This document shows, in pieces, positions 1,628-57,697 of a stretch of 64,000 bases of DNA. Each line of letters starts with the position of its first letter. The first letter of the stretch is position 1. The stretch covers positions 62,001 through 126,000 of the forward strand of contig BROI01000012.1 in NCBI GenBank assembly GCA_027923505.1, in the 5' to 3' direction. The DNA comes from Mayamaea pseudoterrestris (Eukaryota). The position numbers and the translations under genes were made by a program. The notes under the pieces are model-generated. The model saw only the letters and a program-made list of their open reading frames with translations, was not told the DNA's origin and made no database searches.

Positions 1628-2017
1628 TGACAAGTCGCAGAGCGGCGAAGTCAAGAGCCCGAACCCTAATTAGCTTGTGTCGAGTCCGCAGCTGTCGTAT
1701 GTGACATGTGAATGAAGAAAGTGCGCAACCGTCGTGTGGATGCGTTGTATGAATGGAACGACCAGTTACGACTGATGTAATGTGATTGAAAGAAACGGAT
1801 TGATCGGATGATCTTCCGAGTGGTCGATGTAGCGATGTAGCGATAAGCTCACAATATAGAACTACTAGTTTGCGCGAGGAGTGCAGTTCGTGTAGTGGCG
1901 AGCGCAAGACTATTCGACGAGCCATCTCCATCAAGAGCTGTACAGACCGTGGCCAAGGACCCTGTATCGGAGCTTTTTGGAGGTAAGACGTTGACTGCGA
2001 AATCGTCAACGGTGTTA
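1628..2017 (+). repeat. 5' LTR of Copia element 1 (390 bp, TG...TA)
   Basis: Matches 7909-8303 apart from a few substitutions and small indels near 1870-1915; begins TGACAAG, ends GGTGTTA. Confidence 0.93.
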
Positions 2018-2114
2018 GATTAACATTTCAGTGCTTCGAGAGCAAGAACGAGCGAGGGAGCTATCGTGACACATTCGTCTGCAGCGAGTCCGATTCCTCT
2101 GATCAACCTCCACC

Positions 2115-3604
2115 ATGGCGACAATTGATGTAACGACCTACAAGCGTGCCGTCGGTAAAGTCTTCGACATTCCGTGGCTTGCAGCATCCGCAACTTGGGA
2201 GCCAAACGACCCTACCGCAGTGTGTTTCGAGCAAGAGGAACTCACGACTGCGGAGGCGATGGCCGAGCTGTCGGAACAAGACGTGACGAACATTAAGACC
2301 CTGCACCAGTGGTCGACAATACGAACAAGCCGATTGCGCAAGCTCATGAGTTGGATTCACGAGCAACGTCGGACGACTGCGCAATGGCAAGACCTGGAGA
2401 AAGACCACATTACGAGCCGAGAACTCCCAGTAGCACCGGGGTCACCAACCGCAGGCAACCGCAGTTTTGGAGACTTCAGCGTTATCGGAGGCAACAACAC
2501 CACGACGAAACGACACGACATCAAGCTGGATCTGAAGACCATGCTGGAGCTCAAGAACGATCGCAAGTTCTGCTCCTACTGGCGGGCCTTCAAGAACCGC
2601 ATGCGAAGCGAGCGACTTGGCTACTTTTGGGACGACGAGTTCAAGGCACCAGCTGCACTCGAGCCCGAATTCGCCGAGTATCAGTATCAGTGTTCGAAGC
2701 TTTTAGCGGCGCTCGAGTATACCTGCAAGACACCGCAGAGCAAGCTCATTGTCCGCAAGCACATCGACAGCGCGAATGCCTCAGCGTGCATTGCAGATGG
2801 GGCGACATTCCTCGACGGGATGGCGCGCAGTTGATCACGGCCGAAGACGAATGGCGAATTTCACTCGACGCGAGTTACGCCAAGTCTCTCGTCAATTGGC
2901 TTATCCAGTGGTCCAGCAAGGAAGAGAACTACAATGAACCTACAGCCGAGAAACCGATTACAGCAAGCACAAGCTTCAGGCGGCATTTGGAACGCGCGTT
3001 TTTCCGCCATGCGGATATGGCATCGGCGGTGAACATGGCGCTGATCGAAGAGTCCAAGACCGGAAACCGGGATGACACCCAGTTTTGGAACCTCCTGAAC
3101 GACGGCCGCACAATCTGAACGCAGTCGGGCATCAAGGAGACCAAGAAGCGCCAGGCGAACCAATCTGAACAAACCAAGAAAGAGAAGGAGAAGACGAAGA
3201 AGGCAAGCGCGAACAATTCCCAGTCTACGCCAAGTAGCAGCAACAATCAGCAATCCAATCAGGGGGGCGGTGGTCGCGGCGACTTGAGCACGGGACGAGG
3301 CGGCGGCGGCGCGAGGTTGGGGGGTACTGGCTCGTATGTTCGCAGCTACGCGCGACACGAAGACGATCGAAATTCCCAGCGACGTGAATGCGACGATTCC
3401 ACCAAACACGTGGCGACTCCTTACCCGCGATCAGCAACACGAAGTGTTTGAACGCCGTGGTACGAGTCGAGCGGCCAGTGCTGCAGGTGGTTCGACATCA
3501 GCAACACAGGCAGGCACCACGCAAACGACGAGTACAACACGCATCGCGCGAACGTCGCAGCCACTTCATCAGCGGCAACGACCGATGCGGCGAGGCGCGA
3601 GCGT
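2115..3604 (+). pseudogene. gag region of Copia element 1, broken into several frames
   Basis: ATG at 2115 shortly after the 5' LTR. Protein-like sequence continues across frame changes near 2830, 3115 and 3300-3600 and leads into pol. The frameshifts may be decay or assembly errors. Confidence 0.7.
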
Positions 3605-6600
3605 GTGAACAACACTAGCCGTGGCTCAGCGATGCGAAGTTTCTTAGGTCCAGACCAGCCCACGACTACGACTCGGGGAGCAAATATTGCTCAGAGTCGC
3701 AAGTACAAAGTCGCGAGCATTGACTTGGATAAGCATTCAGCGTCGACTGTCGATCGCGGCGCGAGTGGCGGAGTATGGGGAGCGGACGGCCGCATCCTTA
3801 CCGAGGACAAGTTCCACAAGATTGAAGTCACTGGAGTCGGTGGTCTCAAACTTCCGGACCTGTCTACCGTCACAGCAGTCGCCAAGCTTAAGAGCACCAA
3901 GGGTTGGGTCGTCGGCGAGTTCCATAATTACGCATATTCTGGAACCGGCAAGACGATTCATTCGAGTATGCAGATGGAAGCCTTCGGACTTCATGTCAAC
4001 GACAAGCATTACAACTTTGGTGGCAAGTTACGAATCGAAACGCCAGATGGATACAAGTTTATGCTCGGGATGGAAAGTGGCATGGCGACCTTGCCAATGT
4101 TTCCAGTGTCGGCGCATGAGCTTCACACCTTACCTCGGGTCATGATGACCTTCGATGGACCTTGGGATCCGAATGAGTTTGACGTCGAGCCGACCGAGGA
4201 CGACGACTATGACTCTTCGGATGACGATGACGACGAGGACGACGTACCGGACTTGTTGTCGCGCGACGAAGACGACGAAGACAGTGACGACGAAGAGGGC
4301 TTCACGCGCGTGACACGTTCGCGTACGCGGAATCGCACTCATCGTCAAAGCAACGTGACATATACGAATCTCGGACACGACAATCAACCTGTTTACACCG
4401 AGAAGGAGCTGAATGTTTGTGCCGTCGTACAGAAGTACAATGCGGATCTCGTCTATCAGCCCTACAAGTCTATCCTGCCAAAGAAACCTGATATCGACGC
4501 ATTGCTGCCGAACTTTGCATGGTACCCGGCGCAGACGATCAAGGATACTTTGCGCCACAGCACGCAGTTCAACATGCACGAGCGCCGATACCCCCCACGA
4601 ATGCATCGAAAGAGCCGATTCCTGAACGTCTACCGTCTAGATGATCGAGTGGCCCATGACACCATGTTCTTCGACGAACCAGCCATGGATGATCATATCG
4701 ACGGACATGCAGGGTGCACATGCGTGCAGCTATTCTATGGCTGTCGCAGTCAGATCATTGTAGTGTATCCCATGCGGACGAAAGGCGACGTACCGAAACG
4801 ATTCCGTGATTTCATCCGCGAGTTTGGAGCTCCGTTGGAAGTCTTCTCGGATAATGCGAAAGAAGCAATGAGTGCCAAGTTTGACAAAGTAATGCGCGAG
4901 TTCATGATTCGCCGTCGTCATACATCGGAGCCGTACTATCAGAATCAAAATCCAGCCGAGCGCATCATCGGGCACGTCAAGGAAAGTCATGAACGGCTTA
5001 TGGACCGAACAGGCACTCCGGCATGCTTCTGGCTACGCGCTTTACTCTTTCAGACCGAGATGTACCGTCATTTGTCGCATCCTGCCTTGGACGGCAAGTC
5101 TCCCATCGAGTTTATCACTGGGCAAGTCCCCGACGTGTCGAAGTATTTGCATTTTCGTTGGTTTGAAATTGTCAACTACTTTGTCAAGGATGTCGAGGCC
5201 CCGAAGACCCGCCAGCGCGCGGCGTACTGGCTTGGTCCCAACACGACGTGCGGAGACGACCTGACGTACTTCATCTGCGATTGCGAGACACACGAGATCA
5301 TGACGCGATCGGTTTGCTTACCCCAAAATGACCGCGTACCGGCACCTGCTTCCCCAGTCATGAAAGAAGGGGAGCCGCGTCTCTATACCGTACCTGGTCT
5401 AGGTGGCGAGATCCTTATGCCGGAAATGATCAAGAAGATTACCGACGCCGACAGCAGAGACGAAGATTCTTTCATTCCTGACGAAGACGATACCCCTTTG
5501 GTCGAGACGGTGGAATACCCGGAAGATGACGATATGACCGACGGGGAGCTAGATCCTAATCCTGCCGATGACGACCCTGCCGATGACGACGACAAGCCGA
5601 AGAAGAAGAACATCAATCCGTGGCGCAAACTCCCGAAGTATGCACCCGATGAACTTATCGGCAAGTCGTTTCTCATGAAGACGGACGACGGGCAAGAAGT
5701 TCGAGCGACCGTCATGAGCAAGCTGAACAATCGCGACGCCCAGAACCATCAGAACATTAAAATGATGCTGAAACTTGGTAACGGCGAAGCGGACGAAGTC
5801 ATGTCCTATGTCGAGGTTTCCGATCTCTACGAGGCCGAAGTGAACCAAGACATGGCGAATCCTGAGCGTAAATGGTTCTTCAAGGAGATTCTAGACCATC
5901 AGGGTCCGCTGACGAGCAAGTCGAAGAACTGGAAGCATTCCAAGTGGAACGTCCTTGTACAATGGGACGATGGATCCAAGACTTGGGAGCCTCTCAACGC
6001 GATGATCGAAAGCGACAAAGTATCAGTGGCAGCCTACGCGCAAAAGCATAATCTTCTTGACAAGGACGGATGGTCATCGTTGAACCGATGGGCCCGGAAC
6101 GCCAAGAAGGTTGCGCGCAAGGTGGCGACCGCCCGAATGGAGCAGCAGAAGAACGGACCGCGCTACAAGTTTGGAGTCCAAGTACCCCGAGACTGGAAGG
6201 AAGCGCGTCGTCTCCAAGAAGCTGCAGGGCACACGAAGTGGACGGATGCGGAAGGCGTGGAGCTTGCGAACCTGGACGAGTACGAGACGTTTCAAGATCT
6301 TGGTCCGAGTTCCACCACAACACCACCAACTGGTTACCAGAAGATCCGAGTCCATTTTGTGTATGATGTCAAGCACGATTTGCGGTACAAGGCACGTCTC
6401 GTTGCAGGCGGCCACATGACGAAAGACAACGACGATGCCTACTCCAGTGTTATCTCATTGAAGGCAATGCGTCTAGCTCTCGTCATTGGAGAAGCGAACG
6501 GCAAGAAGTGCATGGTCGGTGACATTGGGAATGCTTATCTCGAAGCGTTCACCAAGGAGAAGGTATACTTCGTTGGAGGCCCCGAGTTTGGGGAGCGCGA

Positions 6601-7954
6601 AGGACACATCCTGGTCATCGTCAAGGCTTTGTACGGATTGCGAACGAGCGGAGCACGATTTCACGAACGCTTAGCCGACGCCCTACTTGCGGAAGGGTGG
6701 AAGCCGTCCTATTGCGATTCCGATCTGTGGATCAAGGATGCCGGTGACAGCTACGACTACCTCTGTGTATGGGTCGACGATCTGTTGAATATTTCAGACG
6801 ATCCAGCAGCGTTCTTCAGGATGCTAGAGGAAAAGTACAAGTTTAAACTGAAAGGTGTTGGACATCCCGAGTATCATCTCGGCGGTGACTTTGGACGAGA
6901 CCCTGACGGAACCCTTTACTGGTCGGCCAAGACCTACGTTGCGAAACTCTTGGCGCAGTACGAGCGTTTGTTTGAAGGTCCTCCGAAGAAGTATTCATCA
7001 CCAATCGACAAAGACGATCATCCAGAACTTGACCAAAGCGAGCTACTGAACGACCAAGAGAAGAAGATTTACCAGTCTCTAGTCGGAGCACTTCAGTGGG
7101 CGATTACTTTGGGACGATTTGACATTGCCGTTGCAGTTGTGAGTCTGTCGCGATTCCGTGTGGAGCCGCGCAAGGGACACCTGCAGCGGGTGAAGCGAGT
7201 CTGTGGATATTTACGAGAGTTACCAGACGCAGCAATCCGCTTCCGCACGAAGTGGCCAGCCAACGAGGAGCACTTCGGCACCATGGAGGAACAAGATTGG
7301 GAGCGCAGCGTTTACGGGAAGGACGGAGTTGATGAGATGTTGGACGTCTACCCACCGCCAAAGGGTGTGACCGTACGAACATCAACTTTCGAGGATGCGT
7401 GTCTCATGCATTGCATGGTGACAGGCAAGTCATTGGAAGGAGTTTTGTCATTTGTCAACCAGACGCCTGTCGACTGGCATTGCAAACTCCAGGCTACAGT
7501 CGAGACTGCGACCTTCGGATCGGAATTCAGAGTAGCAAAGAGTGGAACGGATATCAGCATTTCTCTACGCGCGTCGCTCATGGCTATGGGCGTACCATTG
7601 GAGAAGTCTGCCTGGATGTACGGAGACAACCAAGCAGTGATTACGCAATCTACAATCCCGAGTTTGACATTGTCCAAGCGACACAATGCGTTGGCCTACC
7701 ATCGTGTTCGTTGGGCAGTTGCTGCGGGGATTATCAAGTTTGTGAAGATTGACGGAAAGGAGAACATTGCGGACGTACTGACAAAGTACCTGCCGTACTG
7801 TGATGCGATGCCATTGCTCAAGCCAGTATTGTTTTGGCGCGGCGATACATCGTATGCGATTGTGAAGGACAAGAATGCGGCTACGACCAGCAGCGTACCC
7901 GAGGGGAGTGACAAGTCGCAGAGCGGCGAAGTCAAGAGCCCGAACCCTAATTAG
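3605..7954 (+). CDS. pol: Copia Pol polyprotein: protease, integrase, chromo-like domain, reverse transcriptase, RNase H
   Basis: Protease STVDRGASGG; integrase HDTMF/FSDNAKE/QNPAER; RT2 motifs YKARLVAGG, ALYGLRTSG, CVWVDDL; RNase H FGSEF, YGDNQAV, NIADVLTK. The stop codon lies inside the 3' LTR. Confidence 0.95.
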   Translation: MNNTSRGSAMRSFLGPDQPTTTTRGANIAQSRKYKVASIDLDKHSASTVDRGASGGVWGADGRILTEDKFHKIEVTGVGGLKLPDLSTVTAVAKLKSTKGWVVGEFHNYAYSGTGKTIHSSMQMEAFGLHVNDKHYNFGGKLRIETPDGYKFMLGMESGMATLPMFPVSAHELHTLPRVMMTFDGPWDPNEFDVEPTEDDDYDSSDDDDDEDDVPDLLSRDEDDEDSDDEEGFTRVTRSRTRNRTHRQSNVTYTNLGHDNQPVYTEKELNVCAVVQKYNADLVYQPYKSILPKKPDIDALLPNFAWYPAQTIKDTLRHSTQFNMHERRYPPRMHRKSRFLNVYRLDDRVAHDTMFFDEPAMDDHIDGHAGCTCVQLFYGCRSQIIVVYPMRTKGDVPKRFRDFIREFGAPLEVFSDNAKEAMSAKFDKVMREFMIRRRHTSEPYYQNQNPAERIIGHVKESHERLMDRTGTPACFWLRALLFQTEMYRHLSHPALDGKSPIEFITGQVPDVSKYLHFRWFEIVNYFVKDVEAPKTRQRAAYWLGPNTTCGDDLTYFICDCETHEIMTRSVCLPQNDRVPAPASPVMKEGEPRLYTVPGLGGEILMPEMIKKITDADSRDEDSFIPDEDDTPLVETVEYPEDDDMTDGELDPNPADDDPADDDDKPKKKNINPWRKLPKYAPDELIGKSFLMKTDDGQEVRATVMSKLNNRDAQNHQNIKMMLKLGNGEADEVMSYVEVSDLYEAEVNQDMANPERKWFFKEILDHQGPLTSKSKNWKHSKWNVLVQWDDGSKTWEPLNAMIESDKVSVAAYAQKHNLLDKDGWSSLNRWARNAKKVARKVATARMEQQKNGPRYKFGVQVPRDWKEARRLQEAAGHTKWTDAEGVELANLDEYETFQDLGPSSTTTPPTGYQKIRVHFVYDVKHDLRYKARLVAGGHMTKDNDDAYSSVISLKAMRLALVIGEANGKKCMVGDIGNAYLEAFTKEKVYFVGGPEFGEREGHILVIVKALYGLRTSGARFHERLADALLAEGWKPSYCDSDLWIKDAGDSYDYLCVWVDDLLNISDDPAAFFRMLEEKYKFKLKGVGHPEYHLGGDFGRDPDGTLYWSAKTYVAKLLAQYERLFEGPPKKYSSPIDKDDHPELDQSELLNDQEKKIYQSLVGALQWAITLGRFDIAVAVVSLSRFRVEPRKGHLQRVKRVCGYLRELPDAAIRFRTKWPANEEHFGTMEEQDWERSVYGKDGVDEMLDVYPPPKGVTVRTSTFEDACLMHCMVTGKSLEGVLSFVNQTPVDWHCKLQATVETATFGSEFRVAKSGTDISISLRASLMAMGVPLEKSAWMYGDNQAVITQSTIPSLTLSKRHNALAYHRVRWAVAAGIIKFVKIDGKENIADVLTKYLPYCDAMPLLKPVLFWRGDTSYAIVKDKNAATTSSVPEGSDKSQSGEVKSPNPN

Positions 7955-8303
7955 CTTGTGTCGAGTCCGCAGCTGTCGTATGTGACATGTGAATGAAGAA
8001 AGTGCGCAACCGTTGTGTGGATGCGTTGTATGAATGGAACGACCAGTTACGACTGATGTAATGTGATTGAAAGAAACGGATTGATCGGATGATCTTCCGA
8101 GTGGTCGATGTAGCGATGTAGCGATAAGCTCACAATATAGAACTACTAGTTTGCGACGAGAGTGCAGTCGTATTCGTGTAGTGGCGAGCGCAAGACTATT
8201 TGACGAGCCATCTCCATCAAGAGCTGTACAGACCGTGGCCAAGGACCCTGTATCAGAGCTTTTTGGAGGTAAGACGTTGACTGCGAAATCGTCAACGGTG
8301 TTA
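7909..8303 (+). repeat. 3' LTR of Copia element 1 (395 bp)
   Basis: Follows the PPT; direct repeat of 1628-2017; followed by the TSD TTCTC. Confidence 0.93.
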
Positions 8304-9448
8304 TTCTCGTCGGTTGTCGACACTTGCCATCATGACATTGGTTTATATCAACAGGTGTAATTACAATACATACATTAACTAATATCTACAGAAGTAGCTT
8401 GTTGCATTACTACACCTATTCAAAGGGACTATAAAAAGCTCAACGTCGGCACGAGTAGCACTTGCCGCTAAAACTTGAGATTCTTTTCATGGACCACGTC
8501 CCCCAATCGCTATGATCCAGCAGCGCAAGAAACTTATAGCTGGGAATGCCACACATTTCACAAAGTCATGTTTTTTATGCAGAGATTTGGTGTCGAAGCA
8601 AAGGAACGCATGACGGAAGCAACAGTAGATGGAATATGGAATTCTTGGTAGCGGCGACTGCGTCGGACTGCTCGGCCGTGAAACATACTTCTCCGTCAAA
8701 GTCAGTGCATTGCAGCGAGAAGTCACCATCTGAAAGCGTGACGTGCTTCGTAACTGCTTGATAGCAAAATACAATGGATGGCTGAGTGCGTTGGATGTAC
8801 GCCACGCGACTGACCATGCTGATTGCTGATGCAGACCTCATTAGAGGAACGCAGGCATCCAGTTGCGCTTGTCTTTGCACTTACTTTATGGAGGCCTATG
8901 AAGCAGTTGAAGGTTCACCGGAAGGTACCACGCTGCAGAAACATGGCTTGCCTTGGAGGCCTTGTCAGTACGCGATGCATCGCGGCAAAAGTGTTAAGAT
9001 GGATCACTCGCTTGTCAGGGCTTTATAGAGTACCCAAACGCGCAATAAACTCCAAATATATCTTCTATATTGTTATTGATAGTTTCTGGTATAGTTAAGC
9101 TGCGGGATCAGCCTCCATGGTGGTGTATTTGATGAAACAACGTTGAAACAATGAAACGACGGCGCCCCCGTCGTTTCGTCGTTTCAAACAACAATTTTCC
9201 GGGTGACTTGTTGTTTCGAGCGTTCATTCCGGTGCAGGGGGAAGAAAGCCGCACCGGACAATTGAACACCAAGAAGCACATGCACCTACTCGAGACTTTA
9301 CCTGATACCGCCTTACTACGCTCCCCGCGGCGAAAGCCTCGCGACGTCGATTCTCGTCTCCTCATTCTGTTGCACGAAGTCAACTGCAGACATCCGAGTC
9401 AAGCAGTTCCAGTACTTCATTAGATAGTCTCATAAGCTTCAGGCTACC

Positions 9449-11470
9449 ATGGCTGACGCTCCTCCTGTCCCTCACGCCATTGGGGGCCCCGCCGGCATCT
9501 CGACCAACGCCTCGCTCCTCGACTTCTTCACCTCGCCGACCAACGACGCCCTTCGCGGCAACAGCCGCGCGTGGATCGAGCAGCTCGACCCACTTGTCCA
9601 TGACTACGACGGCGCTGACATTCTCGAACGAATCGTCAGCGTGCCTCCGACGCGCGCCGGCGCTTACATCCGTTACCATCGCACGGAACCAGGCGACACG
9701 ATCGGGACGATCAAGGTTTACACTGGCTTTCAGCAGTACGTCGCAGGCCTCGTCATGACGCCCCTCGACGGGCGAGTCTACGCCACGCTGGGCGACCTCC
9801 GCGCACCGGCCATGCCAGTGTACGCCCATCGTGAACGCCCCGATTGCCGGCACCCGGCTCGGAGCCAGGGTACGACCCAAGCCGGGCCTGGCGGACCGGG
9901 GTTCGCGGCATGGCGGTCAGCGAGTGCCCGCACCACGCGCGGTGGCGAGCCCGGCGCGGAGCGGCACCGACGCGCAGGATCTGCGATATACGACACGAAC
10001 CCGCCCCGCACCGCGTGTTGCATCGCGCCGCCAGCTATTACAATCCGAACTACTCGACTTTGCCTCGCCTGCGCCAGCCGCGCAACACGGCGTCGCCGCC
10101 ACAGGCGACGCAATCCCCGAAGGCGTGTCGCCGTGCATCGCATGTACCTTCCGCTGCCGGCGCCGCCTCAAGCACCAATCGACAGCATCCGACTGATGAC
10201 GCTCCTCGCTCAAGAACGCAGCGCATCACGCAAAGACGACACGGACCCCGCGACGCAACTCACCAAGACGTTCGGCGTAGGCGGCATGAACTTGCTGGGG
10301 CGCCTACTGGGAACGGACGACAGCGACGCGTGGCCGCCTATCTGGGCGGTCCTCGCGGGTAGCACCAGCGCCAACGCATTGAACAACTTGGCCGACGCCT
10401 ACCGCCAGTCGGGCGGACCAGGCTGCCGCCCCATCGCCACGCCAGCGCACTTGAGCCTCCTCAAGCACGTCGCGCTCGCGCCCGACAACATCAACGACCT
10501 GACGCAAGGCCTCCAGCCGTTTATCGTCGCCACGCTCGACACCAGCACCAACTCAGCATCGACTCGAACGGCCGAGATCCAAGCCAACGTGGAAGACCAC
10601 CAACTGGTCTTTGAAGGGGGCTCCGTGGACTTGCGCGACGCCCGCTCGTTCCGCGAGGCGAATCGCAAGATCTTCGCCCCGAACACCCCGACTCAGTTCC
10701 GCTCGCAGATGGAAGCCTACCTCAAGGTACTCAAGCAGGTACTAGGGGCGACGCACACGCTCACGGTAACAGTCGACACGTTCATGGTAATGTACCGAGA
10801 GAAGGAGCACGACTACGAAGGCTACCTCGGCCGCATTGAAAAAGGTCCAAGCAAGGCGATGCGTTGGATCCAGATCCGTGTCGGCCACTTCCTTCGCGAC
10901 TTGGCGGATGGAGCGCGGGACACGACAGCGCCAGCGCTTCTCAGTCTCCTCCGCATGTGGAACTACCAAGACCGCAGCTGGTACGACCTCGAGCTGCCGG
11001 GCCTCGGTCCGCGCACACCTGGGGCGCGGGGAGGCATCGTCGACGGCGGACCCTCGGACGACTCGACACTTTCGACAAGAGGAACGGGCACCCGCACGGG
11101 AGCGTCGCAAGGTGGCGGCGCGCCACGCAACGGCGGTGCCGCTCCAGGCTCAAGCGGCACGCAAGGCGGCGGCGGCGCAGGCGGCGGCGGCGGCGGCGGA
11201 GGCGGCACGCGCGAGGCCCTCCCGGCGGCCGACACACCTCCGGAACTCCTTGCCTTTCGCAACGCCCAGGAGCCGAATTTCCGCATTGGGAACATCACGG
11301 CCGGACGCGGCGCTTTCCCGGTACGCGACGACGGCACGCCGATGTGTCTAACCTACCATGTACGAGGCAGTTGCACGACAGCGTGCGCACGCCGCGCCGA
11401 CCATGGCCCCCATACGCCGACTGAGACGGCGCGCTTGGTGGCCTGGTGCCAGTCCGTGCCGTCCCCGTAG
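9449..11470 (+). CDS. Gag-like ORF1 of the YR retrotransposon with C-terminal CCCH-type zinc finger (probably internally frameshifted ~9830-10150)
   Basis: ATG just after repeat A1; Gly-rich linker; terminal MCLTYHVRGSCTTACARRADH motif. An Arg-rich stretch in the middle suggests compensating frameshifts. Confidence 0.75.
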   Translation: MADAPPVPHAIGGPAGISTNASLLDFFTSPTNDALRGNSRAWIEQLDPLVHDYDGADILERIVSVPPTRAGAYIRYHRTEPGDTIGTIKVYTGFQQYVAGLVMTPLDGRVYATLGDLRAPAMPVYAHRERPDCRHPARSQGTTQAGPGGPGFAAWRSASARTTRGGEPGAERHRRAGSAIYDTNPPRTACCIAPPAITIRTTRLCLACASRATRRRRHRRRNPRRRVAVHRMYLPLPAPPQAPIDSIRLMTLLAQERSASRKDDTDPATQLTKTFGVGGMNLLGRLLGTDDSDAWPPIWAVLAGSTSANALNNLADAYRQSGGPGCRPIATPAHLSLLKHVALAPDNINDLTQGLQPFIVATLDTSTNSASTRTAEIQANVEDHQLVFEGGSVDLRDARSFREANRKIFAPNTPTQFRSQMEAYLKVLKQVLGATHTLTVTVDTFMVMYREKEHDYEGYLGRIEKGPSKAMRWIQIRVGHFLRDLADGARDTTAPALLSLLRMWNYQDRSWYDLELPGLGPRTPGARGGIVDGGPSDDSTLSTRGTGTRTGASQGGGAPRNGGAAPGSSGTQGGGGAGGGGGGGGGTREALPAADTPPELLAFRNAQEPNFRIGNITAGRGAFPVRDDGTPMCLTYHVRGSCTTACARRADHGPHTPTETARLVAWCQSVPSP

Positions 11471-13520: not shown

Positions 13521-14234
13521 ATGTAATTTCCTCGCTGCGCCCTCGCTGCGCTCACCGAGCTTTTCTTTCCCCGCGCTTCCTCCCGCTTCCCCACCCAGAC
13601 TTGTCGGCGGCCTGATTTCTCAGACTTCCTCCGGAAATGGGAGGCTGTTGGAGCGACACTGGGCCTGGGGGGTGGCAAGTAAAACTGCCTGTTAACACCA
13701 ACTCGTCTCTCCAACTAGCTAGCTGCCTAGATGGGCTGGATGACAGCAAGCCGGTATGTGCTGAGGACAAAGGACTGGCCATCATTCCGGTGCAGGGGGA
13801 AGAAAGCCGCACCGGACAATTGAACACCAAGAAGCACATGCACCTACTTGAGACTTTACCTGATACTGCCTTACTACGCTCCGCGCGGCGAAAGCCTCGC
13901 GACGTCGATTCTCGTCTCCTCATTCTGTTGCACGAAGTCAACTGCAGACATCCGAGTCAAGCAGTTCCAGTACTTCATTAGATAGTCTCATAAGCTTCAC
14001 CCTCCTCACCCACCCTCGTGACACTGGGCCTGGGGGGGCTGGCAAGTAAACTGCCTGTTAACACCAACTCGTCTCTCCAACTAGCTAGCTGCCTAGATGG
14101 GCTGGATGACAGCAAGCCGGTATGTCGGCTAGGACAAAGGACTGGCGGCCGATTCATGCGGCAAGCACAGGGCAACACAACACACTCAATAGCCCAAGCC
14201 ATGTCGGAGATTCAAGTTGTCAATCAGTCTCTGC

Positions 14235-15653
14235 GTTGTAGCGCAGCAAAAGGATGGCACCATTCGTGTAATTTGAACCTATACTCTTCAGGAAGCATGG
14301 CACGCGGGCTGAGACTGGTGACAAGTTGTCAACAAATACATTGCCATCCCCTGAGACACCAGTCAAGCCTATCATCTTGTAGCGCAGCCTGAAAAAGGAT
14401 GTTGGCACCATTCTGGTGTAATTTGGGCACCTATCGGGCTTGCTGTAGGGGTGTTTGAATGTCAAGGCACCTGCAGGATGAGATTGGTGACAAGTTGTCA
14501 CCAAATACATTGCCATCCCCTGAGACACCAACCAAGCCTACTTTCGTGTAGCGCAGCGTGAAAAAGGATGTTGGCACCATTCGGGTGTAATTTGGGAACC
14601 TACAGGGCTTGCTGTAGGGGCGTTTGAATGTCATGGCATCTGCGGGCTGAGACTGGTGACAAGTTGTCAACAAATACATTGCCATCCCCTGAGACACCAG
14701 TCAAGCCTATCATCTTGTAGCGCAGCCTGAAAAAGGATGTTGGCACCATTCTGGTGTAATTTGGGCACCTACAGGGCTTGCTGTAGGGGCATTTGAATGT
14801 CATGGCATCTGCGGGCTGAGACTGGTGACAAGTTGTCACCAAATACATTGCCATTGCGTGAGACACCAACCAAGCCTACCACATTGTAGCGCAGCCTGAA
14901 AAAGGATGTTGGCACCATTCGGGTGTAATTTGGGCACCTACAGGGCTTGCTGTAGGGGCGTTTGAATGTCATGGCATCTGCGGGCTGAGACTGGTGACAA
15001 GTTGTCAACAAATACATTGCCATCCCCTGAGACACCAGTCAAGCCTATCATCTTGTAGCGCAGCCTGAAAAGGATGTTGGCACCATTCTGGTGTAATTTG
15101 GGCACCTACCGGGCTTGCTGTAGGGGTGTTTGAATGTCAAGGCACCTGCAGGATGAGATTGGTGACAAGTTGTCACCAAATACATTGCCATCCCCTGAGA
15201 CACCAGCCAAGCCTACTTTCGTGTAGCGCAGCCTGAAAAAGGATGTTGGCACCATTCTGGTTTAATTTGGGCACCTACAGGGCTTGCTGTAGGGGCGTTT
15301 GAATGTCATGGCATCTGCGGGCTGAGACTGGTGACAAGTTGTCACCAAATACATTGCCATCCCCTGAGACACCAACCAAGCCTACCATCTTGTAGCGCAT
15401 CCTAAACAATGATGTTGGCACCATTCTGGTGTATTTTAGGCACCTACAGGGCTTGCTGAAGGGGCGTTTGAATGTCACGGCATCTGCAGGCTGAGACTGG
15501 TGACAAGTTGTCACCAGATACATTGCCATCCCCTGAGACACCAGCCAAGCATACCATCTTGTAGCGCAGCCTGAATAAAGATGCTGGCACCATTCTGGTG
15601 TAATTCGGGCACCTACAGGACCTGTTGTTGGGGCGTTTGAATGTCACGGCATC
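14235..15653. repeat. 169-bp tandem satellite (family A), ~8 units, first one degenerate
   Basis: Same unit and orientation as 1-1257. Confidence 0.96.
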
Positions 15654-16125
15654 CACTGTAGCACCATGGAGCTGGTTCCTGTGTGGATGTCTGGATTGCC
15701 CTCCCATACCATAGCTGCTAGGAAGCAGCTATGGATAATTTTTTTGCACAAATCTCACCGCAAGCATGTCCCCAAGCATGGCCACACAGAATGGATGGAG
15801 ACTTCAATTGGGAGTAGATTTGGAAGGCCATGCACTGTAGCACCATGGAGCTGGTACCTGTGTGGATGTCTAGATTGCCCTCCCACACCGTAGCTGCTAA
15901 GAAGCAGCTATGGATGATTTTTTTGCACCAATCTCACCGCAAGCATGTCCCCAAGCATGGCCACACAGAATGGATGGAGACTTCAATTGGGAGTAGATTT
16001 GGAAGGCCATGCACTGTAGCACCATGGAGCTGGTACCTGTGTGGATGTCTAGATTGCCCTCCCACACCGTAGCTGCTAAGAAGCAGCTATGGATGATTTT
16101 TTTGCACCAATCTCACCGCAAGCAT
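15654..16125. repeat. 179-bp tandem repeat (family B), ~2.6 units
   Basis: CACTGTAGCACCATGGAGCTGGT starts at 15654, 15833 and 16012. Confidence 0.93.
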
Positions 16126-16149
16126 AGCCAAAAGGATAAATGTAGCAAG

Positions 16150-16610
16150 TCTTCCCTTTAAACCCTCCAGTAAAATAACCAGGGTTGGGTGGGGTTTGGT
16201 GGTGGCTGGCAGTCAGGATGGCGTTCAGCTACTCAAACACACTCAATAGCCATAGCCATGGGCCATCCAGCTGTAATATGAGTCTCTGCGGCTGCTAGGC
16301 ATGCATAAAGGATGTAGGATGTGCAATCCATTCAATGGTATACCCTTTAAACCCTCAAGTAAAATGACCAGGGTTGGATTTAGCATGGGTTTCAGCTACT
16401 CAAACACACTCAATAGCCATAGCCATGGTCCAGCCAGATCCAATATGAGTCTTTGCGGTTGCTAGGCATGGGTTAAGGAAGTAGGATGTGCTGTCCCTTC
16501 TACCAGTGTGGTATACCTTCAAATCCTCCAGTAAAATGACTGGTGTTAGGTGGGGTTTGGTGGTGGCTGGCAGGCAGCATGGGTTTCAGCTACTCAAACA
16601 AACTCAATGG
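16150..16610. repeat. Degenerate ~170-190-bp tandem repeat (family C), ~2.5 units
   Basis: CCTTTAAACCCTC(C/A)AGTAAAAT and TTCAGCTACTCAAACAC/AAACTCAAT each recur three times. Confidence 0.75.
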
Positions 16611-17244
16611 TACACCTACAAACACAGTGACTGTGCAAAAGTAGTGTTTGATCCTCAAACTCAGGCTGGCCTATGAGTAGACAATATCTTCAGGGGGAAG
16701 CCACTTGTTACCCCCGACCTGGTCGCCAATGGTTTATGTGGTCCAAACTTCCACAATACTGGATCGGCGGTGCCACAAGAACCAATGACTCCCAGTAAAG
16801 AATGGTTCCAAGGCTTGGAAGTCCAAAAAAAGCGCGCGGGGTTCTCCTTGTGCGGCAATTGCTCAAAGGGAATCAAACTCTTCCAGCGGTGGCCTGTCAT
16901 GTCATTGTTTCTGTCAAGGTTAGAGCCTGAGACTACTGTGTGCATTGGTTTAAGAAAATAGATGATGGGCAATGGTGTAAGAAAATATCAGATTTAATAA
17001 TTTTAGTAATTTTAGAGTAAGTGACAATGGACATACCTTTGTGCAGTGCAGCTTGTGAAGATGAATCCTTGGAGTTTTTATGATTCCATGAACCTCTTAC
17101 TCGTACAATTCTTGTATGACATACCGGTATTTCGACACCTTGTTTCGTCCGTGATAGCTAGATTGTTCGCGGTAGGAAAAAATGGAAAATACATCGCTCC
17201 GCGACTCACGTTGACATCCTAAAGCCACACGACGACGACGACGA

Positions 17245-17455
17245 TGTTGGATCTAGAATATATCTTGCGCGCCCTTGAAGCGACACTAATGATTAAGCAG
17301 AACAGAGTCAATAAAACCACTTTACTTATTTTCTCCAAGAAGTGATCGTCCTCGATCCACTCCTTCGGTTGCCGCTTACCGCGCTTACTTAAATGTGACC
17401 GTCTTCGTGACGTCACCGCTGCCGCTTCGGTTTGGGTTCTCATCCATGCTCAACA
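17245..17455 (-). repeat. 3' LTR of Copia element 2
   Basis: Identical by eye to 22259-22469; preceded on the minus strand by the purine-rich AAAGGAGTG. Confidence 0.95.
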
Positions 17456-20400
17456 CACTCCTTTGGGCCGAGTAGTACTTACTGCTCGAGGCCAGATTCA
17501 TAACCAGGTTGCGGAGCTTGCCAAACTGGGCTCCCTGCAATGGTTTCGTGAAGAAATCCGCGACCATGTCTCCGGTCGGACAATGCTCAATGTTGACTTC
17601 ACCAGCTGCCACGCGATCTTTCACAAAGAAGTACCGAACATTCATGTGTCGCGTGCGCTTTGTACTTGAGCTTCTGCCATTCTTTTCCAACAGCATTGAA
17701 CTCATATTGTCTTGATACAATTTCGTGTCTTTGACCCCGAAACCTTGCGCCTTCAGAAAATATCCTGTCCACAGCAACTGCGGTAGCACATCATGAACTC
17801 CCACAACTTCGCTCTCCGTCGAGCTTCTTGTTACCAACTTCTGTTTAGCCGACGTACTGTACACTGATCCTTGGCCAAGTGTCATTGTTCCACCAGTGTG
17901 ACCCTTCATGTCTGGGTGCACCGCGTACGACGCATCCACCCACCACTGGACTATCCCGGACTGGTCCGCCTTCAGCGTCAACACCATGTCCACGCTTCCG
18001 CGTAAATATTTAATCACTCTTGCAGCCTTCTTATAGTCGTCTTCGTCAGGCTGCTGCAGCCTCGTGCTCAAGAAAGAAATCGCTGTGCGAATATCCGGTC
18101 GCGCTCGCTGACTCAGATACAGACACTGCATCACAATCGTCACAAAAATCTGCTTCTTCGCTTCGCTCAACATGACAGGATTTTCCGATATCTGAAACAA
18201 GTGACTGGCTGCCGGAGTAGCTGCCGTTCCATCCATGTCGTCTGGCGCATGATGCAGGATGTTCTTCACATAGTCAACCATGTTGATTGCTACTTCTCCA
18301 GGCTTAGTATAGTCCAATACCATGCCGAGGTAGTCGTGCACTTTTCCGCGTGACTTATTCATTGGAGTCTCCTTGCCAAACTCCTCATCCATCTGCGCGA
18401 TGAACTCATCCACTACGCTCACGTCGACGTGCGAAATCTTCAAATCGTCCACGTGCCATCCCACGGTGATTTGCTTCCCATTGACAATCTTGTTGCACAC
18501 ACACGGATCGTACGGGTTCTTCTCGAAGCCCCACTCAAGCAATTTTGCGGACAACTTCTCCCAGAATAGTCGCGCTGCTCGAAGCGTACCATAAAGCGCC
18601 ATGAGTAATTCAACATACATGACTTTCTCGCCATTCTCCATTGTGACGCAAGGCTCGTACATCTCGCGATCAATTTCCAACAGTAGCTCCACCATCTTCC
18701 CAGTGAAACGAACGTGCACCAACTCATCCATTTCCGCTTGCATGAAAGCACCCGGTACATCAACCACAGCAACCTCGCGCCCTTCCATAGCGTCAATGAT
18801 AGCTGTCAGAAAGATGGCCTCTGTCGCTATCGTTGGAGATGCTGCGTCTTCCTTTGCAGTGTATGCTCGTTGCTTGCGTCCATCCGCGCATCCGCGTCCC
18901 TTCACAGTCCCGCATCTCTTGCGCTTGAGAAACATCAAATACGCCAGAGCGTCCTTGCGCTGCTGCGGAGTCAGAGTGCATTGGGGGACTGCCTTCATGA
19001 CGTGCCTGTCGTGTAGCTGCTGCATTTCCTTGCGCACTGCCTCCACTCCAGCATCGCCAAAAGCCTTTAAACCTTGTCGCATATTCATCTGTGCCGTGAC
19101 GAGTGGCTCCGACACTTCCTCTGCAGCGTCGAGCGTGAACAAATGAGCGAACGAGCGAGGTTTGCGCGCACGCAGGCCATACCGACCAGTGCGTGGGCCA
19201 TAGCGCGCATCGAAATCCTCTTCGTCTGCAGCAGCTGGCACTCCTTCAATTTCGCCTTCATCGGGCACTCCTTCAATTTCGCCATCATCCACGGCTGGCG
19301 CGTCGTCAAGTTCGCCGTCAATGGCCTCACCATCCTCGTCGTTCGGCACTCCTTCGATTGCGCCGTCAGCACCATCGTCGTCGTCGTCGTCGTCATCGGT
19401 CGCATTCACTCCTTCGCTTCCGCCGGCAGAGTCGTCGTCACCGCGAGAAGCGTCGTCATCATAATCAGAGTCATCATCATCCTCGGCGTCATCTTCGTGC
19501 CACATGACTGGCTCAGCAGCCTCCGCAACACGGTGGCGGTCCATGAACACGATGCCCGGATTGGCCTTCTGTTGACGAGCGAGACGATGCACGCGCTCAA
19601 TGACATCATCAGGCATGGGCAAAGGCGTAGCGTGCCCACGATTCAGAACTTTGCCCGAAGACAAACTGAGGAAATAAAACCCACCCTGCACATTACCAGT
19701 CGGGCGCAGAGCCAGCGCACCGATCGTGCGCGCCTGCATGTCATTGCTGTGCGACTCATGCGTTTGCACATACTGACCAAATTCATACTTGCAATGCCGA
19801 TTAAAGTCAACTGTCTGACCAGTCACAATAGTGCGTGGACTGAGATCCTTCGAAATGCCACGCTCGTTCGGAAACGCATTCAACCAAAACACGGCAGACT
19901 TCGTCATTTCGATAACCAAGCGTGCCGGCACGTGCTTAAATGGCAACGTGTTGTACGTCGCGCGCACGCGTTCTTTAACGACACGGATAAAACGTTCAAT
20001 TTCGCCAACGTGTTCATCCTCAGATGTCGAATGAGGCGCGCCTCCGACATCAGCCAACGCGCCAAGCATTGGAGCGAACTCCCCATCCATCAGAGCCGCG
20101 ACGACACGGAACCCACCGCGTGCGTAAATCTTCAACACAGACTCGATTGCCTTCAACATAACCGGAAGCGTACGGTTTTGAATCACCTCAACCGTAGCAA
20201 AACGAATGCTGCGGGAGAACGTCACCAACATAGGGACTTTGTTGATATACATGATGTCAGCACAAAGAGTAACGTCTCGATAGCGACTCATGATAGCCGG
20301 TGGAAGCTGCTCAACAATCGCAGGCTTCACCAGATGCGACGCGCGACGCGTCGTCTTTCCTTTTAACGAGCCAACATCTGGTCCAAAGATGTGCTCAGCA

Positions 20401-20867
20401 GCCAGGATGTCGGCCTTCGTCACAGGACAGTTCGGCAACTGATTGCTAGTAACGATGCGCAGGTAATCCTTGAGGCTTGGCCGTCCAATTTTGATTTGCA
20501 GTTCCCTAGCTCTAACAGCGCGTAAATAGTCATCATTGGTGTAGTTAGTACGGTTATCGTCTACCGTAGTCAACATCGCCACTCCATCCTTGACATCGCT
20601 GCGCTTGCCCTTCGAAAAGCTCTCGCAAACATACAGCCCAGAGTCAGTCTCGACAAACTCTCGCTGCTTACCATCCGGCTTCTCCACAACGAACATTGAC
20701 GATCCACGCCGTGCCTGAGATACTCCACGGTAAACTTCTTGCGGACTTGCGCCAAACTCAAACTGTTCGCCAGTCCACGCGGATACCACCACACCGGACC
20801 ATAGCCCTCCAGGTCGCCCATCATGTTCGTCCTTACTGTACCAGCGTTGCACTTGATCACCATCCAC
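17385..20867 (-). CDS. pol: Copia Pol (integrase, RT, RNase H); true coding frame starts ~20720 after a frameshift
   Basis: Integrase LCADIMY/LMDGEF/EHVGEIER; RT ALYGTLRAA, WHVDDLKISH; RNase H WWVDASYA, SSTESE, YQDNMS, VADFFTKPLQG. Confidence 0.94.
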   Translation of the reverse strand: MDGDQVQRWYSKDEHDGRPGGLWSGVVVSAWTGEQFEFGASPQEVYRGVSQARRGSSMFVVEKPDGKQREFVETDSGLYVCESFSKGKRSDVKDGVAMLTTVDDNRTNYTNDDYLRAVRARELQIKIGRPSLKDYLRIVTSNQLPNCPVTKADILAAEHIFGPDVGSLKGKTTRRASHLVKPAIVEQLPPAIMSRYRDVTLCADIMYINKVPMLVTFSRSIRFATVEVIQNRTLPVMLKAIESVLKIYARGGFRVVAALMDGEFAPMLGALADVGGAPHSTSEDEHVGEIERFIRVVKERVRATYNTLPFKHVPARLVIEMTKSAVFWLNAFPNERGISKDLSPRTIVTGQTVDFNRHCKYEFGQYVQTHESHSNDMQARTIGALALRPTGNVQGGFYFLSLSSGKVLNRGHATPLPMPDDVIERVHRLARQQKANPGIVFMDRHRVAEAAEPVMWHEDDAEDDDDSDYDDDASRGDDDSAGGSEGVNATDDDDDDDDGADGAIEGVPNDEDGEAIDGELDDAPAVDDGEIEGVPDEGEIEGVPAAADEEDFDARYGPRTGRYGLRARKPRSFAHLFTLDAAEEVSEPLVTAQMNMRQGLKAFGDAGVEAVRKEMQQLHDRHVMKAVPQCTLTPQQRKDALAYLMFLKRKRCGTVKGRGCADGRKQRAYTAKEDAASPTIATEAIFLTAIIDAMEGREVAVVDVPGAFMQAEMDELVHVRFTGKMVELLLEIDREMYEPCVTMENGEKVMYVELLMALYGTLRAARLFWEKLSAKLLEWGFEKNPYDPCVCNKIVNGKQITVGWHVDDLKISHVDVSVVDEFIAQMDEEFGKETPMNKSRGKVHDYLGMVLDYTKPGEVAINMVDYVKNILHHAPDDMDGTAATPAASHLFQISENPVMLSEAKKQIFVTIVMQCLYLSQRARPDIRTAISFLSTRLQQPDEDDYKKAARVIKYLRGSVDMVLTLKADQSGIVQWWVDASYAVHPDMKGHTGGTMTLGQGSVYSTSAKQKLVTRSSTESEVVGVHDVLPQLLWTGYFLKAQGFGVKDTKLYQDNMSSMLLEKNGRSSSTKRTRHMNVRYFFVKDRVAAGEVNIEHCPTGDMVADFFTKPLQGAQFGKLRNLVMNLASSSKYYSAQRSVLSMDENPNRSGSGDVTKTVTFK

Positions 20868-22231
20868 GTTGGCACCGGGCGAATGTTCGTCAGCATCTTG
20901 GCGTTGCAGAACAGATCCACTGTCGACTGATTGTCCAAGAGCACAGCCTTCTTCGAGATGTTCACCTTCGGCGGCTGCGCGAACATGTATCCGACCTCAT
21001 CGTCGTCATCGCTTTCTTCCTCGCTACCCAGCGTGAAGTGCTGCGCCCCACTAGCCTCTGCAGCCGGCGCACTCTCCGTAGACTCCGTTCTCGTAGGACA
21101 GTCTCGCTGCACATGACCAACCTGTTGACAGGTCCAGCATCTGGGAGGGTCACGCGCTGTACCAGTCGTGTGAAACGCCACGCCCTCGTTCGTTGGCAAC
21201 GTGGCTTCTCCATCCGCATGCTCACGACGCTGCATGATGTTGTATGCATCGTGGATCGTCAACGGGAAGTTGTCGTGCCCGTCGAGGTAGCAGTTGCGCA
21301 AGTGCTTGCAATACCCAGCGTATTCGCCCGTTGCGCCACGCACGAAAAGCATCGCAAGCTCGAGCTCTTCGGCGGCCTTGATATCCTCCTTGTTCGCCTT
21401 GTTACGATTGTCATCCTTGGCAATGTTCAACGCCACAATCTCGTTGTGCATCGTGACGCCAACCGCCTTCGCCACGTCTGCCAGCGTGACCATGCTTTCG
21501 TAATATTTCTGCAGGCTTTCGCGCGCTCCTTGAGTACGTCCGAACAACTCAGCTTGAATGTCCACGACTTGATCCACAAGTTTGCAGCGCCCTTCGTACG
21601 TATGCGAGATCTCCTTGATAATCGCCAGCAACTTAATTCCGTCCGTGTCCTCCTCGGCGTCTCGGAACTTGGCGTGCGACTTGACACGATCCTTCATACG
21701 CTCCGTGCATTGTCCATGCAACACGGCGTAGAGACCAGCGAGGAAGTCGGAGTATACACGCACGCGCTCGACATGCTCTTTCTTGTCGGCCTTGTATTCC
21801 TCGAGCATTATGGACCAGTCCGAGTCCGTCGTGTCGGCATCCTTCGTTGGACGTGCAGGCTCGTCAGGAATCTCCAGTTCCACGTTGCGCATGCCCTTGA
21901 GCAGCTCCTTGGTATATTTCTTGTAGGAGCGCCCGACGAAAGTGATGATCTCGTTCGTCGTACGGATGAATCCATCGGGATCGCGCGAACCGTTATAGTC
22001 GTAGATGAATCCAGCGAGCGTCGGCTCGCTTCCTTGGAAATTTCCACTCGGCGCACGACTCGGTCCGTTGAGTCTGTTACCATTGCCTTGATTCCCGGAA
22101 CGATTCCCAGCACGATTCCCACGACGATAATGACGGTTGCGTCGGTTTCCTTCGCTTGCTGGCGGAGCGGGAGGTGCACCTCCACCGCTCGACGCCGCTC
22201 CTGTCGTCGGAGTATTGCTCGTCGAAGACAT
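20570..22231 (-). CDS. gag: Copia Gag with CCHC zinc knuckle plus protease
   Basis: CWTCQQVGHVQRDC knuckle; protease-like LLDNQSTVDLFCN...ANSLSLAQV. The frame is lost near 20720. Confidence 0.9.
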   Translation of the reverse strand: MSSTSNTPTTGAASSGGGAPPAPPASEGNRRNRHYRRGNRAGNRSGNQGNGNRLNGPSRAPSGNFQGSEPTLAGFIYDYNGSRDPDGFIRTTNEIITFVGRSYKKYTKELLKGMRNVELEIPDEPARPTKDADTTDSDWSIMLEEYKADKKEHVERVRVYSDFLAGLYAVLHGQCTERMKDRVKSHAKFRDAEEDTDGIKLLAIIKEISHTYEGRCKLVDQVVDIQAELFGRTQGARESLQKYYESMVTLADVAKAVGVTMHNEIVALNIAKDDNRNKANKEDIKAAEELELAMLFVRGATGEYAGYCKHLRNCYLDGHDNFPLTIHDAYNIMQRREHADGEATLPTNEGVAFHTTGTARDPPRCWTCQQVGHVQRDCPTRTESTESAPAAEASGAQHFTLGSEEESDDDDEVGYMFAQPPKVNISKKAVLLDNQSTVDLFCNAKMLTNIRPVPTWMVIKCNAGTVRTNMMGDLEGYGPVWWYPRGLANSLSLAQVRKKFTVEYLRHGVDRQCSLWRSRMVSSESLSRLTLGCMFARAFRRASAAMSRMEWRC

Positions 22232-22258
22232 GTCTTTTCACTCGCTTCTTGGAGAAAA

Positions 22259-22469
22259 TGTTGGATCTAGAATATATCTTGCGCGCCCTTGAAGCGACAC
22301 TAATGATTAAGCAGAACAGAGTCAATAAAACCACTTTACTTATTTTCTCCAAGAAGTGATCGTCCTCGATCCACTCCTTCGGTTGCCGCTTACCGCGCTT
22401 ACTTAAATGTGACCGTCTTCGTGACGTCACCGCTGCCGCTTCGGTTTGGGTTCTCATCCATGCTCAACA
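22259..22469 (-). repeat. 5' LTR of Copia element 2
   Basis: Identical to 17245-17455; gag ATG 28 nt downstream on the minus strand. Confidence 0.95.
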
Positions 22470-22741
22470 GACGACCCCGACCCCTTCATCACACAACTCA
22501 CAGTCAGTCTCTGATAGAGAGCAGAAAGACGCTACAACATTTTGGTCCAGTAGATACACCATTGGCTGGTTGCTGCAGCGATACAAGGTAAGAATTGAGC
22601 AAGCAAAGATCCTCCATTGGCCAAGCGCATCGCATTTCTCAGTCCACTTCCAAGGCTGCAAGAACATCTTAGAACAATTACAAATCACAACTCGAGGGTC
22701 CGTTTCGCCTTTTTTCTTTGCTTCAACGAAAAGGTATAACG

Positions 22742-41969: not shown

Positions 41970-42074
41970 GCTATACGCACATTGAAACAAGAAACCTGTT
42001 GGATATTGGATCCGCCATGAGACGAGAGTTGATGAGCGATTTGCATGGGTTAACCTCGCGTGGTAGGGAAGCAG

Positions 42075-42441
42075 GGCAATAGTATGAAACGAGTGCCAGT
42101 GAAAACTGAGTCATGAGGCACTAACACGAAACGGCTGCCAGTGTCAATTACGTCATAAGGCAATAGTATGAAACAAGTGCCAGTGTCAATTACGTCATGA
42201 GGCTATAGTAAGAAAGGATTGCCAGTGTCAATTACGTCATGAGGCAATAGTGTGAAAGGAATGCCAGTTCACTTCGACAAAAGGCAATAGTACGAAACGA
42301 GTGCCAGTGAAAACTACGTCACAAGGCAATAGTATGAAACGAGTGCCAGTGAAACCTACGTCATGAGGCAATAACACGAAACGAGTGCCAGTGAAAACTG
42401 CGTCATTAGGCTATAGTATGAAACGAGTGCCAGTGAAAACT
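42075..42441. repeat. 42-bp minisatellite, ~9 units
   Basis: Unit GGCAATAGTA(T/C)GAAACGAGTGCCAGTG(AAAAC/TCAAT)T(A/G)CGTCATGA. Confidence 0.93.
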
Positions 42442-52800: not shown

Positions 52801-53164
52801 CCAGTTGAAGGGCCATCTGCCTTGAAGGCGCCACTGGTGCACCAATGGAGCATCCAATGAGCACATGCATGGCCAAACCCTTGTCCCATATATTCATTTG
52901 GTGTGGTAAAACCCCGCCATGGCATCCAAGTAGCTCAGTGATGACGAGAAGGAAAATCCTTCTGAACACCAGTTGAAAGCCATCTGCCTACTGGTAGAAG
53001 GCGCCACTGGTGCACCAATGGAGCATCCTATGAGCACATGCATGGCCAAACCCTTGTCCCATATGTCCATTTGGTCTGGTGAAACCCCGCCATGGCATCC
53101 AAGTAGCTCAGTGATGGCAAGAAGGAAAATTTCTTTGAGCGCCAGTTGAAGGGCCATCTGCCTT
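46899..53164. repeat. 168-bp tandem satellite (family D), ~37 units
   Basis: Unit CCATCTGCCTAGAAGGCGCCACTGGTGCACCAATGGAGCATCCAATGAGCACCTGCATGGCCAAACCCTTGTCCC...; 56-codon periodicity in the ORF track. Confidence 0.98.
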
Positions 53165-55098: not shown

Positions 55099-55274
55099 AC
55101 GTCATAAGGCAATAGTACGAAACGAGTGCCAGTGTCAATTACGTCACGTGGCAGTAGTACGAAACGAGTGCCAGTGAGAACGAAGCCAAAGGCAATAGTA
55201 TGAAACGAGTGCCAGTGAAAACTGCGTCAGTAAGGCCATAGTATGAAACGAGTGCCAGTGTAAACTGCGTCATC
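55099..55274. repeat. 42-bp minisatellite, ~4 units (same family as 42075-42441)
   Basis: GAAACGAGTGCCAGTG core every 41-42 nt. Confidence 0.92.
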
Positions 55275-57601: not shown

Positions 57602-57697
57602 GACTAAGGTAGCGACTGCAATGTATGCTGCCAATCATGTTAATGTGGGCGATGCATGTCGAACAAGACGGAGCAGGTCGATCTTGCGTCTTCTCAG

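Follow-up and report, generated by a model that had tools for sequence, protein, structure and literature searches.

A diatom Ty1/copia element with a candidate self-primer: conserved, covarying pairing between the primer-binding site and the element's own LTR

Tf1 and Tf2 of Schizosaccharomyces pombe, which belong to the Tf1/sushi group of Ty3/gypsy chromoviruses, provide the model against which the present locus is best read. In Tf1, as a review (PMC7175516) reports from experiment, the first 11 bases pair with the primer-binding site (PBS) and RNase H severs base 11 from base 12; no tRNA serves as primer, and the primer has its 3′ end at the U5/PBS border. The element studied here, E1, lies in a 64-kb window (the whole stretch of 64,000 nucleotides of Mayamaea pseudoterrestris DNA that was analyzed) and resembles Tf1 and Tf2 in that the PBS beside its 5′ LTR complements the putative start of its own transcript; the geometry that we model for E1 is likewise that of Tf1. 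E1 nonetheless differs from Tf1 in carrying a Copia-type reverse transcriptase (RT; Pfam RVT_2) rather than a gypsy-type one, and its clade differs in having a duplex of 14-19 bp, as opposed to 11, that usually includes the last LTR base. Moreover, whereas Tf1 has been tested at the bench, the E1 clade is known from sequence alone. Membership of E1 in the Tf1/sushi clade by descent was considered and rejected, since its RT is of the RVT_2 and not the Ty3/gypsy type.

In the same superfamily as E1 stands the plant Ty1/copia lineage TAR, including Houba and Osr-1, for which self-priming is predicted by Neumann et al. (2019; PMC6317226). These authors cite an earlier self-priming proposal for Houba and Osr-1, and define a self-primer in silico as a stretch that begins 0-5 bp beyond the 5′ LTR and complements that LTR over at least 10 bp. 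E1 falls within this definition, and thus shares with TAR both its superfamily and its in-silico signature; the hosts differ, being land plants for TAR and diatoms for E1. The initial annotation of the locus had proposed a tRNA-independent, self-priming Copia lineage and knew of no other. The first part of that proposal is supported by the conserved, covarying pairing set out below, but the second does not stand, because the prediction for TAR (PMC6317226) means that a self-priming Copia lineage is not unprecedented.

Two further groups of Copia elements lack a conventional PBS. Elements primed by half-tRNAs resemble E1 in that the PBS does not start with TGG; in the primer assignments of PMC6317226 these are Osser, Bryco and part of Gymco-II, with a half tRNA-Met, and Bianca, with a half tRNA-Ile. 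In such elements, as that source presents them, the PBS is conserved and matches an internal tRNA region, whereas in the E1 clade it differs from family to family and matches the element's own LTR. The fungal GalEa Copia elements, which bear a 'Conserved Hairpin Site', are also without a classical PBS, but their authors found no LTR complement to the hairpin site, while the complement in E1 is perfect (PMC5445492).

According to Maumus et al. (2009; PMC2806351), diatom genomes have Copia elements as their main transposons, and these respond to stress there; the CoDi groups of that paper share with E1 a polyprotein gene and short LTRs as well as a diatom host. Neither tRNAs nor priming are discussed in its main text, where the single 'PBS' denotes a buffer. 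Two recent papers on diatom transposable elements make no mention of PBS, primer binding or self-priming in their text, and our literature search returned no report of self-priming for diatom Copia elements.

Structure and copy state of the window element

Inspection of the window revealed a complete LTR retrotransposon on the minus strand, with the following features.

17245..22469, minus strand: complete Ty1/copia LTR retrotransposon E1, 5,225 bp, with an LTR pair and Pfam matches to RVT_2 and zf-CCHC
22259..22469, minus strand: 5′ LTR of E1, 211 bp, TGTTG...CAACA
17245..17455, minus strand: 3′ LTR of E1, 211 bp, identical to the 5′ LTR
22470..22474, minus strand: upstream copy of the target-site duplication TCGTC, 5 bp, flanking E1
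17240..17244, minus strand: downstream copy of the target-site duplication TCGTC, 5 bp, flanking E1
20570..22231, minus strand: gag-side open reading frame (ORF), 553 aa, with a CCHC zinc knuckle (Pfam zf-CCHC)
17385..20867, minus strand: pol-side ORF, 1160 aa, with RVT_2, extending at its end into the 3′ LTR
17456..17464, minus strand: polypurine tract (PPT) AAAGGAGTG, abutting the 3′ LTR
22357..22359, minus strand: initiator-like TCA motif, its A at 22357 being the putative transcript start (U3/R border)
22342..22356, minus strand: candidate self-primer S1, CTTCTTGGAGAAAAT, the putative first bases of R, placed by complementarity and minimum-free-energy (MFE) fold
17328..17342, minus strand: copy of S1 in the 3′ LTR, by sequence
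22245..22259, minus strand: candidate PBS S2, ATTTTCTCCAAGAAG, starting with the last LTR base and without TGG
20697..20698, minus strand: frame break, TTGA in the window against one more G in contigs of four public runs

E1 is a Ty1/copia element. The RT in its pol is of Copia type (RVT_2, E = 2e-16, 60.8 bits against a cutoff of 31.6), a domain found also in its relatives, and TG..CA LTR ends, a 5-bp target duplication, a gag zinc knuckle and a PPT before the 3′ LTR are all present. The pol ORF is 98% identical to a protein of the diatom Mayamaea pseudoterrestris. No match to a Pfam integrase was obtained in the 656 aa before the E1 RT or in two full-length relatives; a DGEFE...PEIER motif before the RT, picked out by eye in the family consensus, has a likeness to the D,D35E core of integrases. 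A profile of the E1 family found no match among PDB sequences. The polyprotein frame crosses the PPT into the LTR (17451-17462 and related loci), where a conserved C-terminal R-S-V-L is encoded by AGGAGTGTGTTG; PPT, LTR start and coding sequence thus overlap across the clade.

All four public runs compared have contigs with an extra G after 20697 relative to the window, which indicates that the window copy carries either a 1-bp deletion or an assembly error. Without this G, gag and pol lie in different frames in the window copy; its presence would put them in one. An empty site was recovered in run X2 as a contig joining 17239 to 22470, with five letters that fit either side, at a depth of ~27 versus >1,000 for E1. 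The E1 family is therefore multi-copy and the insertion polymorphic, and these properties, taken with the identical LTRs, point to recent movement.

Several features of the read assemblies may be recorded alongside. Over 17100-22620 in runs X2-X4, E1 contigs are deeper than the flanks by a factor of 10 to several hundred. In run X4, the 211-nt LTR unitig has a depth of ~3,200, below the ~4,400-9,900 of internal contigs, contig depth being a poor measure; an LTR shallower than the interior is odd for plain genomic DNA, in which LTRs are expected to be at least twice as deep. A contig present in runs X3 and X4 matches the LTR end and the first eight PBS bases, then diverges at 22251 into 221 letters of unrelated sequence, and may represent a derivative or recombinant with a truncated PBS.

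The window holds other repeats as well. A second Copia element, unrelated to E1, occupies 1630-8303 on the plus strand, with LTRs at 1630-2017 and about 7909-8303 (97.5% alike, TG...TA), a TTCTC duplication and an RVT_2-bearing ORF of 1449 aa; pol identity between this element and E1 is only 22%, and the sequence after the LTR of the second element, GATTAACATTTCAG, is without TGG and has no complement of at least 6 nt in its own LTR. A 218-bp direct repeat (9224-9441 and 13782-13999, 98.6% alike and 4.6 kb apart), for which neither TG..CA ends nor a target duplication was seen, encloses an ORF at 9449-11470 (673 aa) that has no Pfam match; the unit may be a segmental duplicate or else a non-autonomous element. 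Satellite arrays that repeat every ~168-169 bp lie at 1-1257, 14224-15705 and 46899-53163 (the largest, ~6.3 kb), a 179-bp array lies at 15650-16186, and a repeat with a 42-bp period recurs at ~42072-42441, 55099-55273 and 57692-57868.

Pairing of the primer-binding site with the LTR in E1 and its relatives

The 5′ LTR of E1 is followed directly by TTTTCTCCAAGAAG (22258-22245), without TGG, and the exact complement of this sequence, CTTCTTGGAGAAAA, lies at 22356-22343 within the 5′ LTR. A second copy of the complement occupies 17342-17329 in the 3′ LTR, and the sequence recurs nowhere else in the 64 kb of the window. The pairing extends to 15 bp if the terminal LTR base, A at 22259, is matched with T at 22342. 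TCA stands directly before the LTR arm, with its A at 22357. Direct reading of the sequence thus bears out what the initial annotation had claimed of this junction, namely the absence of TGG, a perfect complement of 14 or 15 bp and an initiator-like TCA at the arm edge, and adds to it the copy in the 3′ LTR; relatives add a CTCA(Y)(W) consensus at the corresponding place in 26 families. When a 133-nt RNA beginning at 22357 is folded, its MFE structure includes all 15 pairs; by total energy, the leader as a whole is unexceptional (z = -1.64; 8 of 200 shuffles fold at least as well).

One explanation for such pairing is that it is a chance inverted repeat or an assembly artefact. As a control, 5000 random 60-nt pieces of the window were set after the LTR and the longest anchored complement was scored, up to a maximum value of 25. 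Among the 4986 draws below the maximum, the longest complement was 12 nt, reached in one draw; the remaining 14 of 5000 scored 25, and are presumably overlaps with the LTR copies themselves. The E1 pairing is real, and beyond chance within the window. Artefact fares no better, as the 5′ LTR and PBS are covered by contigs from two studies (record 4 of run X1, to 22346, and record 27 of run X4, which is the whole LTR) and none of the runs compared has a letter that differs from the window between 22245 and 22469. Only the A+T-rich composition of many of the pairs speaks for chance or artefact, and recurrence of the pairing, with different sequences, in 34 independent contigs refutes it; we regard this explanation as having practically no probability left.

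Those contigs came from a search with a profile of the pol protein and 23 homologues, which returned 79 metagenome loci with pol 36-68% identical. In many of the contigs the assembly is circularly permuted, with a single LTR between the end of pol and the start of gag. The LTR ends of most relatives were set by the TGTTG/CAACA motif on single-LTR contigs and not by two LTR copies. Terminal direct repeats of contigs were dropped as LTR boundaries because they are mostly assembly overlaps inside coding sequence, and the PPT/TGTTG and CAACA motifs were used in their place; the PPT/LTR-start motif GGAGTG|TGTTG occurs, with at most one mismatch, in most related loci. Eleven end-overlap contigs (L002, L006, L008, L016, L020, L030, L054-L056, L067 and L076) contain one LTR and the internal region each, which fits either assembly collapse of two LTRs or one-LTR circles.

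Of the 79 loci, the 36 with a match to the gag N-terminus were taken as assessable, and 41 others without one were treated collectively as lacking the junction. Perfect pairing of 14-19 nt between the LTR and the sequence after it, starting at or right after the LTR end, is found in 33 of the 36. The LTR in these 33 ends in CAACA in 31, in TAACA in L016 and in CAACT in L041. Pairing is imperfect in L013 (13/16, in an element whose LTRs are only 93% alike) and in L044 (a 1-nt bulge), both of which look decayed, and L040 is the one assessable locus in which none was found. L018, which has no gag match, also shows the pairing, bringing the total to 34 related loci with 14-19 bp, while L043 is ambiguous, its S2 and S1 lying on different element fragments. 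In 363,858 nt scanned blind for perfect inverted pairs (arms of 12 nt or more, loop of 30-250 nt), 45 pairs came up, and in 34 of these the second arm starts at or right after a CAACA LTR end, which marks the pairing as specific to that position. Admitting short loops, or a first arm located in the other LTR copy, added L009, L024, L026 and L027. Judged by these comparisons, the pairing is conserved in dozens of relatives, and the clade appears deep and of diatom type.

The arms themselves change from family to family. We compared end-anchored inner 14-mers of E1 and 32 loci, leaving out L043 along with L038 and L049, whose matches (12 nt at a distance of 1,188 nt, and 12 nt about 2.6 kb apart in reverse order, respectively) were judged to be chance. 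The end-anchored 14-mers were used for the pair statistics because a MAFFT alignment of the S1-to-S2 stretch of 30 elements aligned only the CAACA end and left the 5′ arms scattered. This set contains 26 distinct inner 14-mers, and every one of the 14 pair positions varies, with three or four pair types at each. When S1 of one family is set against S2 of another, by comparison, a mean of 6.0 of 14 positions match, and at most 11. Compensated differences can be seen between close relatives, both in L005 versus L018 (CTCTTTTTACGAAAT and CTCTTTGTTTGAAAT, the PBS matching in each) and in E1 versus L076 (CTTCTTGGAGAAAAT and CTTCTTAAAGTAAA, again with a matching PBS in each). Compensatory change between the PBS and the LTR segment had been named at the outset as the thing to look for in relatives, and the outcome is clearly positive: 26 distinct 14-mers, with pairing kept.

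No PBS stretch among those listed begins with TGG, and their A+T content is 85%. Given 26 different PBS stretches, no single conserved host tRNA fits them all, and a tRNA primer for the clade appears unlikely. ARAGORN detected no tRNA genes in the 64-kb window.

Leader geometry and a self-priming model

Of 33 elements, 28 have CA at the point where S1 begins on its 5′ side; the A is still unpaired, just ahead of the duplex, in 19 and opens the duplex in 9. Anchored on this A, 26 families read C18 T20 C25 A25 Y25 W26 (counts out of 26), the -1 and 0 positions of this logo being partly fixed by the choice of anchor; apart from this CTCA(Y)(W) motif, the LTRs of different families are unalignable. 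The eukaryotic initiator has the form YYA(+1)NW, which the motif at the S1 edge resembles, and the likeness would place the transcript start at the first base of the S1 arm or one base before it, where priming of the Tf1 type requires it. For E1, we infer a start at 22357. No A+T enrichment suggestive of a TATA box was detected between -70 and -5 of the putative start.

In the 30 elements with both arms in one stretch, the distance from S1 to the PBS is 82-122 nt in 21, 27-55 nt in six and 150-151 nt in three, whereas the U3-side length spans 90-369 nt among 23 loci. The duplex is present in the MFE fold of all 30 elements folded and of E1, and is usually followed by a small hairpin and a longer stem. 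Many relatives carry (C/T)T(A/G)GTTT right after S1, as the 5′ arm of the small hairpin, and in E1 an AATAAG overlaps the 3′ end of S1 (22339-22344); these elements near the S1 end may be determinants of poly(A) addition or of the RNase H cut.

A stem conserved in this manner, and present in every MFE fold, might instead be a leader structure that serves packaging, dimerisation, translation control or circularisation, with priming left to a tRNA half, a host small RNA or an unrecognized site. Structured leaders are common in retroelements, and the fungal GalEa Copia elements have a conserved hairpin without a classical PBS (PMC5445492). Against this, S2 in E1 and 34 loci begins at the LTR end or one base beyond it, the one position required of a PBS, and there is no other conserved PBS-like sequence after the LTR, since post-LTR sequences differ between families. 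A stem alone should, in addition, tolerate G:U pairs and mismatches, while 33 of 36 loci are perfect over 14-19 bp, as fits templated copying, although the pairs were found by a perfect Watson-Crick search and the absence of G:U is partly by construction. A purely structural role is, on these grounds, improbable.

We therefore return to self-priming of the Tf1 type, which is in our judgment probably correct for E1 and its clade and the best reading of the comparative data. Under this model, transcription would begin within the LTR, on the A of a CTCA-type initiator (22357 in E1), and the first 14-19 nt of the RNA (S1, 22356-22342) would fold back over ~80-120 nt of R-U5 to pair with S2, the PBS that begins at the last LTR base (22259-22245). 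RNase H of the element would then cut the RNA at the 3′ end of the duplex, and the freed 3′ OH, exactly at the U5/PBS border, would be extended into minus-strand strong-stop DNA. Because the duplex includes the last LTR base in most elements, either a cut one base short or copying of the last ribonucleotide of the primer would be needed. Plus-strand strong-stop DNA would in turn copy the primer, such that every cycle rewrites the progeny PBS from S1; the S1 copy in the 3′ LTR (17328..17342) would be the one inherited by both LTRs of the progeny. This proposed rewriting would account for arms that stay perfectly Watson-Crick while drifting between families.

The same complementarity could also act in trans, with S1 supplied by the 5′ end of a second packaged genomic RNA or by a short abortive transcript. 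Retroelement RNAs are generally packaged as dimers, and complementarity alone cannot separate cis from trans. The S1-to-PBS distance is narrow, however, even as the U3-side length ranges widely, and internal hairpins recur in the folds; together these suggest a constrained fold-back, and we consider priming in trans very improbable. Self-priming in cis, by fold-back of the transcript's own 5′ end, is the form of the model that we carry forward.

Implications for diatom Copia elements

The comparative evidence supports the E1 clade as a new and large diatom addition to the self-primed LTR retrotransposons. Self-priming is proven only for Tf1, which is of the gypsy type; the E1 clade would carry it into a second superfamily and a second eukaryotic supergroup. 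A broader reading, which we put forward tentatively and as plausible without calling it probable, is that an ancient diatom Copia clade (with pol identity down to 36%) gave up host tRNA primers, each family priming with the first 14-19 nt of its own initiator-defined transcript, and that primer and PBS have since drifted together, free of host constraint; self-priming would then have arisen here independently of Tf1/sushi, and possibly of TAR.

If this reading is true, self-priming would be a recurrent solution in both LTR superfamilies, and likely a major route of retrotransposition among marine phytoplankton. A self-primed clade would, in addition, account for the missing recognizable PBS, owing to which LTR-finding software misses or misclassifies such elements. 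With more than 26 covarying primer/PBS pairs, the clade is a natural collection in which the choice of RNase H cut can be studied, and its members, if self-primed, would be independent of host tRNA pools and of silencing based on tRNA fragments.
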